Positions 16,884 through 17,790 of a DNA stretch of 37,028 bases are shown here, in pieces. Numbering within the stretch: position 1 is the first letter of the stretch; the number at the start of each line of letters is the position of its first letter. The stretch is taken from IMG/VR virus record IMGVR_UViG_2690316076_000004, one strand, 5' to 3'. The notes beneath the pieces were generated by a model. The model was not told where the DNA came from. It ran no database searches and saw only the letters and a program-made list of their open reading frames with translations. The stretch is from a virus. Lineage: Duplodnaviria > Heunggongvirae > Uroviricota > Caudoviricetes. Both the position numbers and the translations under genes were made by a program.

Positions 16884-17186
16884 TTAACGGTTACTCAACC
16901 TACGATAACGAAGATGAGCAATCCCTCTATTCGTGCTAACTGTAATTACTGCCCCTTGCGGTGCAATACAAGAATGGATCTGACCCCAATCATGACCCTT
17001 ATGGCTTCCAGATACACAAAAACCATGAATAAACAATTCAGAGTCACCGCCGCCACCACCGGAAGAATGAGCACAGAATGAAATAGTCCCGAAAGCGTCG
17101 GCTGTCCAACCGTTAGGAATATCAAACCATCCTTGATTTGCTTTACCCGCCCTATTCCCCAAAGCGCCATCTACCCAAAATGCCAT
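16884..17186 (-). CDS. small Gly/His-rich protein, paralog 3 of tandem triplet
   Basis: shares M-A/G-F/Y-W N-terminus and FDIPNGW motif with the two upstream paralogs; start overlaps upstream stop. Confidence 0.55.
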   Translation of the reverse strand: MAFWVDGALGNRAGKANQGWFDIPNGWTADAFGTISFCAHSSGGGGGDSELFIHGFCVSGSHKGHDWGQIHSCIAPQGAVITVSTNRGIAHLRYRRLSNR

Positions 17187-17491
17187 TAGTGCATTCTCCT
17201 GAATTTGAAATAATGCAAACTACCTTTACCCAATGTAAAGCTAACGGTAGCACCAGCGCCAACTAAAGAACTAGCGCCCCAACTCCCAGCATCACCAGCG
17301 TGATGACCTGATTCAATCAATCCATTTACAGCCAATTCAGAATCAAGATCACCAGCACCGTTAACGGCTTCCATATGAGCAAAGACAATTCCGCATGAAT
17401 CAGTGACCCAACCGTTTGGGATATCAAAATAACCACCATTAGCCCAAATACTAATAGCGTTTGACATTCTTTGATTTATCCATCCAGCCAT
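17186..17491 (-). CDS. small Gly/His-rich protein, paralog 2 of tandem triplet
   Basis: FDIPNGW motif, C-terminal YFKF; ATGA overlap with paralog 1. Confidence 0.55.
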   Translation of the reverse strand: MAGWINQRMSNAISIWANGGYFDIPNGWVTDSCGIVFAHMEAVNGAGDLDSELAVNGLIESGHHAGDAGSWGASSLVGAGATVSFTLGKGSLHYFKFRRMH

Positions 17492-17493
17492 AA

Positions 17494-17790
17494 TTAAAAC
17501 TCCATGAATTTAAAATATTCAATACCACCATCACCGCCGTGTCCGCAGGTGACAGTACAGCCAGCAGGAACAAAGGCGTTTATAGTAGACCCCCAATTAG
17601 TTCCACCACGACGACGAGCAACGGTCAAACCATCTACGTTAATCACACCATCAGCCCATCCACCGCCAGCATTATGACGCATTACAGCGACACCAGCGCG
17701 AGCAGTACCATAACCGTTAGGAATATCAAATACATGCCATTTTAAAGCATCGATTTTAGTATTAATTTCACTACTTACCCAATATCCCAT
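17494..17790 (-). CDS. small Gly/His-rich protein, paralog 1 of tandem triplet
   Basis: FDIPNGY motif, C-terminal YFKF; directly downstream of tail-fibre gene. Confidence 0.55.
   Translation of the reverse strand: MGYWVSSEINTKIDALKWHVFDIPNGYGTARAGVAVMRHNAGGGWADGVINVDGLTVARRRGGTNWGSTINAFVPAGCTVTCGHGGDGGIEYFKFMEF

Follow-up and report, generated by a model that had tools for sequence, protein, structure and literature searches.

Three small paralogous proteins encoded beside a chaperone-terminated tail fibre of an Escherichia coli prophage are candidates for a split fibre-tip adhesin

Results

The stretch of DNA analysed here (IMG/VR record IMGVR_UViG_2690316076_000004; 37,028 nucleotides, hereafter 'the window') is a chromosomal siphovirus prophage of Escherichia coli that encodes a gpA-type terminase, a lambda-family portal, a protease-capsid fusion, a tape measure protein and a J-like tip protein. 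Directly downstream of its tail fibre gene lie three consecutive minus-strand open reading frames (ORFs), here called genes A, B and C and collectively the triplet, which are the subject of this work. Gene A (17494-17790) encodes a protein of 98 amino acids (aa) with an MGYW N-terminus, an FDIPNGY motif and a C-terminal YFKFMEF; gene B (17186-17491) encodes 101 aa with an MAGW N-terminus, an FDIPNGW motif and a YFKFRRMH C-terminus; and gene C (16884-17186) encodes 100 aa with an MAFW N-terminus, an FDIPNGW motif and an LRYRRLSNR C-terminus. The genes are tightly coupled, with a 2-nt gap between the stop of A and the start of B (TAATTATG) and a single nucleotide shared by the stop of B and the ATG of C (TAATG). 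Pairwise BLASTP comparisons are significant for A and B (E=5e-9, 37% identity), A and C (E=2e-8, 25% identity) and B and C (E=4e-14, 35% identity). The three proteins have in common an M-[AG]-x-W N-terminus and the motif FDIPNG[WY]; YFKF is found near the C-terminus of A and B, with HLRY instead in C. A first-pass annotation, made from the sequence alone, had proposed the coupling, the paralogy and these motifs, and all of them hold. Its description of the proteins as rich in Gly, His and Cys stands for glycine (16-18%), the enrichment in histidine being only mild (3-6%) and cysteine not being abundant (1-3%); the glycine runs are short (GGGGG in C).

The fibre gene (17830-21243, minus strand) encodes 1137 aa with a Gp34_trimer domain and a C-terminal Peptidase_S74 domain in Pfam. 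The distal half of the protein resembles T-even gp37 (PHROG 1699, 'long tail fiber protein distal subunit', E=6e-129), and the gene has ~84% nucleotide identity to the gp37 genes of Krischvirus, a genus of RB49-like T-even phages. The Peptidase_S74 match (PF13884, E=3.3e-15) covers residues 1026-1085 and begins at S1026, which agrees with the earlier placement of the triplet directly after a fibre with a chaperone domain. Gene A starts 39 nt downstream of the fibre gene. Its Shine-Dalgarno sequence (AAGGA) is separated from the fibre stop by a GC-rich hairpin (GCGGGGAGAAATCCCCGC, 17802-17823), so there is no coupling between the fibre and A. Hairpins with stems or loops of different sequence occupy the equivalent site in phage UPWr_E1 and in two of the loci fetched for comparison, L021 and L019. 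This junction carries a hairpin in most loci (listed for 17802-17823 of the window and the equivalents in L026, L021 and L019), the stem-loop variants being GCGGGGAG-AAA-, GCGGGGAT-TTC-, GGGAGGG-CTTG- and GGGGCG-ATAA-. The annotation of phage G2248 labels the equivalent hairpin a terminator; the fibre-A hairpin lacks a T-run on the coding strand, and a role there as intrinsic terminator was therefore rejected as unsupported. It may instead be an attenuator or an RNA-stability element that sets the ratio of fibre to cap (triplet) expression.

The proteins belong to a family that has gone without a name. In Pfam neither A nor B matched a family at E<=1 and C matched only an unrelated family below threshold, a PHROG scan gave no usable match for any of the three, every public copy of the family is labelled 'hypothetical', and a literature search found no description of these proteins. 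A sequence-profile search of the PDB gave chance-level matches only and did not recover 6F45_D. The profile searches thus assign the triplet to no known family of unrelated function, and the first-pass annotation was right to leave it unrecognised. A profile search of 5.8 billion proteins yielded 39 clusters, all of them from E. coli, Shigella or Salmonella and all unnamed. An exhaustive hidden Markov model (HMM) search of 1.84 billion representatives gave 18 matches, 15 of which are proteins of ~100-130 aa; it found neither a fusion of fibre and knob nor an A-B-C fusion protein. The three long matches (P0054, P0055 and P0057) were treated as unrelated, being repeat proteins matched over a partial stretch. 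An alignment-derived scan of the GTDB representative genomes found no relatives, and a scan of the same collection for the FDIPNGW coding pattern gave 105 matches, equal to the number estimated by chance and with no family member among them. One weak family-HMM match (E=8e-5), in a Rhodothermales metagenome-assembled genome (L085 5248-5268), was judged by eye to be spurious and to belong to a type I restriction S subunit; FDIPNGW sits there in what appears, again by eye, to be a target-recognition domain, which calls for caution in motif-based searches. Metagenome and viral-contig scans added only close relatives. Judged from these sequence searches, the family is small and enterobacterial, and its cultured carriers are G37-3, G2248 and UPWr_E1 only, all of them Krischvirus, together with a remnant in KFS-EC.

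To describe how family members are arranged, the family HMM was run over all ORFs of the fetched loci. Each locus with a family member has exactly three adjacent same-strand members in the conserved order A-B-C, the exceptions being a locus at the end of a contig, another whose middle gene is truncated, and the decayed triplets of KFS-EC and ETEC4085 described below. A truncated middle gene of 73 aa lies at L013 6300-6521 in one IMG/VR prophage. The gene upstream of the triplet is always a fibre ending in Peptidase_S74, 10-40 nt away, and the fibre link proposed in the first-pass annotation therefore extends to every locus examined and to three phage morphotypes. Four backbones carry the arrangement: sipho prophages of E. 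coli and Salmonella (the window, L004-L018, L009 and L040-43); the Krischvirus myoviruses G37-3, G2248 and UPWr_E1; T7-like podovirus contigs, in which a fibre with Phage_T7_tail and S74 domains is followed by the triplet, a holin, the small terminase and the terminase; and a contig with a second tail-fibre gene downstream of the triplet. Stop-to-start spacing inside the triplet is -4 to +4 nt in all loci, consistent with equimolar synthesis. Some position-2 orthologs carry N-terminal extensions of 10-30 aa before the GW motif.

The three positions are also old. In a neighbour-joining tree built from six divergent triplets, the first genes of the 6 loci form a clade, as do the third genes, and four of the six second genes cluster, the second genes of two T7-like loci forming a separate branch; no member groups with a paralog of its own locus. 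Triplication is therefore ancient and predates the spread of the triplet across these phages, and all three copies have been kept, so that none appears dispensable, as a hetero-oligomer predicts. The dN/dS ratio is 0.08-0.24 in A, 0.06-0.18 in B and 0.07-0.09 in C, which evolves most slowly, and this purifying selection on all of them indicates that A, B and C are real genes. In the presumed distal loops pN/pS is 0.26 versus 0.22 elsewhere, with no non-synonymous excess. The first-pass annotation had taken the diversification of the triplet as a sign of host-range-related selection; this was not borne out, since the divergence between A, B and C is ancient and since positive selection was rejected on the gene-wide ratios (0.06-0.24) and on a loop zone that behaves like the rest of the protein.

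We next consider the end of the fibre to which the triplet genes are adjacent. In S16 and the fPS phages the intramolecular chaperone (IMC) is cut off once the fibre has trimerised, which exposes an end for gp38 to dock on; S16 gp37 releases its last 113 residues, the last strand in the fPS phages is DVYIR^S and the fPS-2 site reads DVYIR^SDGRLKI (PMC7917993). The C-terminus of the window fibre aligns to S16 gp37 (PDB 6F45_A, E=1.3e-5) across the cleavage site of the latter, DLNVS^SDRRIKK, and residues 1020-1032 of the window fibre read NDVYIR^SDRRLKI, in which DVYIR^SD is identical to the fPS-2 site. Cleavage of the window fibre is accordingly predicted, from this identity, at R1025^S1026: the IMC (Peptidase_S74; 17833-18168, minus strand; residues 1026-1137, 112 aa) would be released after trimerisation, and the NDVYIR segment (18169-18186, minus strand; residues 1020-1025) would be the last beta-strand before the autocleavage site. 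By sequence, NDVYIR corresponds to the strand that has been described as the surface on which gp38 docks in fPS/S16-type fibres. Over the ~100 residues that precede the cleavage site there is near identity between the window fibre, which is linked to a triplet, and the fibres of fPS-2, FL15 and ETEC4085, which are linked to gp38. NDVYIR is conserved in all capped E. coli fibres, and other triplet-linked fibres have a different tip domain and retain the strand, which reads NDVYIR in the other E. coli and Salmonella triplet loci, RDIYIR in G2248 and NNYFLR, NDVQVR or TDIMMR in metagenomic triplet loci. The S74 domain, with Ser at the cleavage site, is kept in all 11 triplet-linked fibres aligned. 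Two cap-less prophages have the strand NDVHIR or NDVQIR, an IMC of a third sequence type and no cap genes downstream, and the sequence type of the IMC co-segregates with the type of cap.

AlphaFold2 (AF2) models of single chains agree for A and C on an N-terminal helix of low to middling confidence (57-71) followed by a confident seven-strand beta sandwich. For A (pLDDT 83.6) the helix spans residues 2-12; for C (pLDDT 82.4) it spans residues 3-12 at low confidence (57-59) and the sandwich exceeds 90. Structural matches in the PDB are weak and consist of C1q, cerebellin, TNF and CBM6/35 jelly-rolls (E 7e-3 to 2e-2, TMq 0.35-0.52); those in BFVD are better and consist of phage tail-fibre domains and of phage proteins with C1q domains or collagen repeats (E 1e-4 to 1e-3, TMq 0.55-0.68). 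A, B and C are thus modelled as an N-terminal helix and a small jelly-roll resembling fibre knobs and C1q/TNF domains. We found no gp38-type polyglycine-II sandwich, with Gly motifs flanking hypervariable loops, AF2 giving the seven-strand beta sandwich in its place. Trp4, which is invariant in 36 family sequences, lies within the N-terminal segment modelled as a low-confidence helix. Binding of gp38 to the gp37 trimer involves three short helices, each with a conserved Trp at its apex, and the three Trp residues occupy three symmetric hydrophobic pockets of the trimer (PMC6851490). The Trp segments of fPS-2 gp38 are GW-IGSSAANE, RW-MSQAAGQ and CW-MSQFAGR, and those of the triplet are YW-VSSEINTK, GW-INQRMSNA and FW-VDGALGNR. 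Scored against the gp38 prongs, the triplet N-termini fall in the 93rd-99th percentile of W-centred segments drawn from the other proteins of the window, three values that are not independent of one another, and the likeness is suggestive.

The triplet and gp38 share a gene slot. In Krischvirus we compared the slot between gp37 and a conserved 79-aa ORF with holin t. In FL15 the slot holds a 260-aa gp38 adhesin and in G37-3, G2248 and UPWr_E1 an intact triplet; in RB49 it is empty, gp38 being ~100 kb away; and in KFS-EC it holds a triplet with a 463-nt deletion from the end of A into C, with an RB49-type gp38 elsewhere. The 107-aa 'hypothetical protein' after gp37 of KFS-EC (L003, MH560358 98605-98928) is gene A fused to the middle of gene C, and the real gp38 of this phage lies at 153141-153917, placed as in RB49 (L035 142-918). 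A tblastn search of G37-3 with two gp38 queries found no gp38 in the genome (best E 0.94), G37-3 being the one triplet phage searched genome-wide and the part of it outside the search lying inside gp34/gp35. The backbone of the window prophage likewise exists in three states, with a triplet in most genomes, with a gp38-type 260-aa 'receptor-recognizing protein' in ETEC4085 and one other genome, or with nothing. In ETEC4085 (L037, NZ_CP122634.1 2751240-2752950) a segment of ~1.5 kb is 91-94% identical to the virulent Krischvirus FL15; it begins ~560 nt ahead of the fibre stop, spans the IMC and gp38 and ends within the first codons of the 79-aa ORF. The junction falls at about codon 36 of gene C, with A, B and the first ~35 codons of C replaced and an untranslatable remnant of C left behind. 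This scar is direct evidence for recent recombination between T-even-like and temperate phages, and the triplet is allelic with T2/S16-type gp38 in two unrelated backbones. Overall, in the slots surveyed, the triplet is missing or in decay whenever gp38 is present, and the one whole genome with an intact triplet that was tested has no gp38.

Discussion

The first-pass annotation had listed fibre assembly factors, fibre-tip adhesins and receptor-modifying proteins as the usual occupants of this position. We favour the second of these, on the allelism with gp38 and on the knob-like jelly-roll fold that the models predict. Specifically, it is on balance probable that A, B and C constitute a split, separately encoded distal cap or adhesin of an IMC-type fibre that functionally replaces the monomeric gp38, probably as an A:B:C heterotrimer. 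The heterotrimer is favoured because the copy number is always three, because gene order and orthology are conserved and because the genes are translationally coupled. More tentatively, and as a reading somewhat less likely than not, the three proteins could form one pseudo-three-fold, C1q-like knob in which each chain contributes one Trp to the three pockets left by cleavage of the IMC. Under the mechanism that we propose, the fibre would trimerise with the aid of its own C-terminal S74 chaperone, a step suggested by the presence of the domain and by the established role of such chaperones in the trimerisation of such fibres. The chaperone would then cleave itself off after NDVYIR (R1025^S1026) and bare a flat, three-fold-symmetric tip, as the identity with the fPS/S16 site implies. 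Equal amounts of A, B and C, made from the tightly coupled genes, would each supply one jelly-roll knob and one Trp4 segment and would dock on this tip, most likely as a pseudo-three-fold A:B:C heterotrimer with one Trp in each symmetric pocket, leaving the distal loops of the knobs to contact the host surface.

Several observations weigh against this interpretation. The co-segregation of IMC type and cap type could be mere linkage, or could reflect a triplet that acts together with the IMC during assembly, and T4 shows that a gene in this slot can be a chaperone and not an adhesin. The cap-less prophages have fibres with the same tip domain, so the cap is dispensable for fibre folding and the tip may bind receptors alone. 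The resemblance between the Trp segments and the gp38 prongs is short, and the N-terminal Trp is missing in gene 3 of the T7-like locus L021 (MAFM) and in genes 1 and 3 of L023 (MAIQ and MGLL), so three Trp prongs are not universal. An hhalign comparison of the 36-sequence family profile with a gp38 alignment gave a probability of 1% and E=0.056 over 9 columns; profile-profile homology to gp38 is therefore absent and the relation is one of functional analogy at best. Finally, no gp38-like hypervariable segments occur among the orthologs, which are under purifying selection throughout.

Some of the same observations would suit proteins that are not part of the virion. In such a scheme, which we regard as unlikely, A, B and C would help the fibre tip to fold, or the S74 chaperone to act or leave, and would then be released; the T4 protein encoded in this slot, gp38, acts as a chaperone (PMC7917993), the sequence type of the IMC follows the presence of the triplet, low diversity under purifying selection fits a housekeeping role in assembly, and the upstream hairpin may lower expression relative to the fibre. 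However, the fibre has a chaperone of its own, fibres with the same tip domain exist without an adjacent cap gene, the proteins have no Pfam similarity to the Tfa or gp38-chaperone families, the modelled fold matches distal fibre knobs and not known chaperones, and the gene exchanged with the triplet is an adhesin-type gp38 and not one of the T4 chaperone type.

A different stoichiometry within the same cap or adhesin role seems to us improbable to a slightly greater degree. Each paralog would form its own homotrimer, giving three alternative caps, so that individual fibres differ and several receptors are recognised. Proteins with a TNF/C1q-like fold usually form trimers, the Pam3 gp24 adhesin, a homotrimer, shares the plan of a helix and a TNF-like domain (PMC9608196), and Trp4 and FDIPNG are present in all of A, B and C, so each could dock alone. 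Alternative caps should nevertheless vary in number and be gained or lost singly, whereas the triplet keeps three members, with their order and positional orthology, across sipho-, myo- and podovirus loci; translational coupling suggests a fixed 1:1:1 synthesis, and both decayed cases lost several genes together.

It is very improbable that the triplet is an accessory cassette with no role in the fibre (in superinfection exclusion, receptor masking or anti-defence) that is merely co-carried by recombination, for even though a hairpin separates it from the fibre gene and genes for blocking a receptor, such as T5 llp and phi80 cor, are frequent neighbours of receptor-binding genes, A, B and C lack a signal peptide, a lipobox and any hydrophobic stretch (the highest 12-aa Kyte-Doolittle mean being 1.3-1.6), their genes lie within late or structural operons on four backbones, they are mutually exclusive with a structural adhesin gene, and the strict set of three paralogs would be left unexplained.

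How, then, would a cap made of A, B and C compare with known systems? The closest is gp38 of the T2/T6/S16 type (PDB 6F45), whose gene, like the triplet, comes immediately after that of a gp37-type fibre with an S74 chaperone at its end; its fibres have the strand NDVYIR^SD for docking and cleavage in common with the window fibre and, in some cases, also its tip domain. Both gp38 and the triplet are Gly-rich, both have a conserved N-terminal Trp in or beside a short helix, which in the triplet is modelled at low confidence, and they have been exchanged in two backbones. They differ in that gp38 is one ~260-aa monomer with three Trp residues on one chain and the triplet three ~100-aa proteins with one Trp each, and in that the body of gp38 is a beta-helix and polyglycine-II sandwich with hypervariable segments, whereas that of the triplet is a predicted beta-sandwich jelly-roll with none. 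The C1q head and the TNF-like superfamily have a small jelly-roll like that predicted for the triplet, and C1q, cerebellin and TNF recur among its PDB matches. In the C1q head three paralogous chains, A, B and C, form one pseudo-three-fold head. The C1q sandwich, however, has ~130 residues versus ~80 in the triplet, its collagen stalk is absent from the triplet, and the PDB matches are weak. T4 gp38 and the Tfa proteins of Mu, P2 and lambda resemble the triplet in lying directly downstream of a fibre gene and in being exchanged with fibre tips; the triplet has no match to the profile of these assembly chaperones (Tfa / Caudo_TAP) and differs from them in its modelled fold, and the window fibre has its own intramolecular chaperone. 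By its described architecture, gp24 of the cyanophage Pam3 is a homotrimer that resembles the modelled triplet in its N-terminal helical anchor, TNF-like beta-sandwich and Gly-rich distal loops, and it was described as structurally analogous to gp38 by its authors (PMC9608196). It differs from the triplet in being a single gene product that docks on the baseplate and not on a fibre tip, in needing a separate chaperone, gp25, and in its large Gly-rich domain of 12 motifs.

Fibres that end in an IMC and have no receptor-binding domain of their own are common. A 2026 preprint argues that such fibres depend on "undetected external adhesin partners" (10.64898/2026.05.12.724579), and the triplet offers a concrete candidate for a partner of this kind, one that can be tested. 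Detachable tip adhesins on IMC fibres are already a known concept; what is new is the protein family, its fold and its organisation as three paralogs. If our reading is correct, the triplet would be a second, unrelated family of detachable fibre tips beside gp38, with tips swapped, and recombination scars left, between virulent T-even-like phages and temperate E. coli siphophages, and three ~100-aa proteins together with an IMC would make a small modular unit for host-range prediction and fibre engineering. If, in addition, the tip is a heterotrimeric knob, it would be a previously undescribed class of phage receptor-binding tip that solves the problem of matching a trimer to its adhesin in the opposite way from the monomeric gp38, that presents three non-equivalent receptor-binding faces on one fibre, and that is portable, as cap plus IMC, between myo-, sipho- and podoviruses, virulent and temperate. 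The cultured carriers G37-3, G2248 and UPWr_E1 make the idea readily testable.

Additional observations

Close relatives of the window prophage are present in 55 of 5426 complete E. coli genomes, all of them chromosomal and never on a plasmid, and the idea of a phage-plasmid was rejected, with no match in the plasmid collection. A search of 50,697 phage records found no relative of the window at the nucleotide level outside the fibre module. At its 3' boundary the module ends in a spacer (16831-16883, minus strand) with a small hairpin (GGGTATGTACCC) before a tail-tube gene of 156 aa. The fibre and triplet form a cassette between two minus-strand phrog_158 (major-tail-protein) genes, at 16360-16830 (156 aa) and 21317-22150 (277 aa); the cassette thus lies in the tail-tube part of the siphovirus operon and not after the J-like tip gene, the usual site of side fibres, and this layout is conserved in the E. 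coli and Salmonella relatives. In L007 an extra gene of 357 aa (5273-6346), with weak DUF723/CapR matches, lies between the 277-aa gene and the fibre. A minus-strand gene at 11045-11815, between tail genes, encodes a 256-aa NUMOD3 protein that is likely a homing endonuclease; it is present in L004 and L005 and absent at that place in L006 and L007, and so looks like a mobile insertion. Other relatives have GIY-YIG nucleases or insertion sequence elements in the fibre region. A single 667-aa ORF on the minus strand at 23051-25054 encodes both a prohead protease domain (Peptidase_S78) and a major capsid domain of HK97 type. The prophage is probably integrated by a 564-aa large serine recombinase with Resolvase, Recombinase and Zn_ribbon_recom domains, encoded on the plus strand at 1648-3342.

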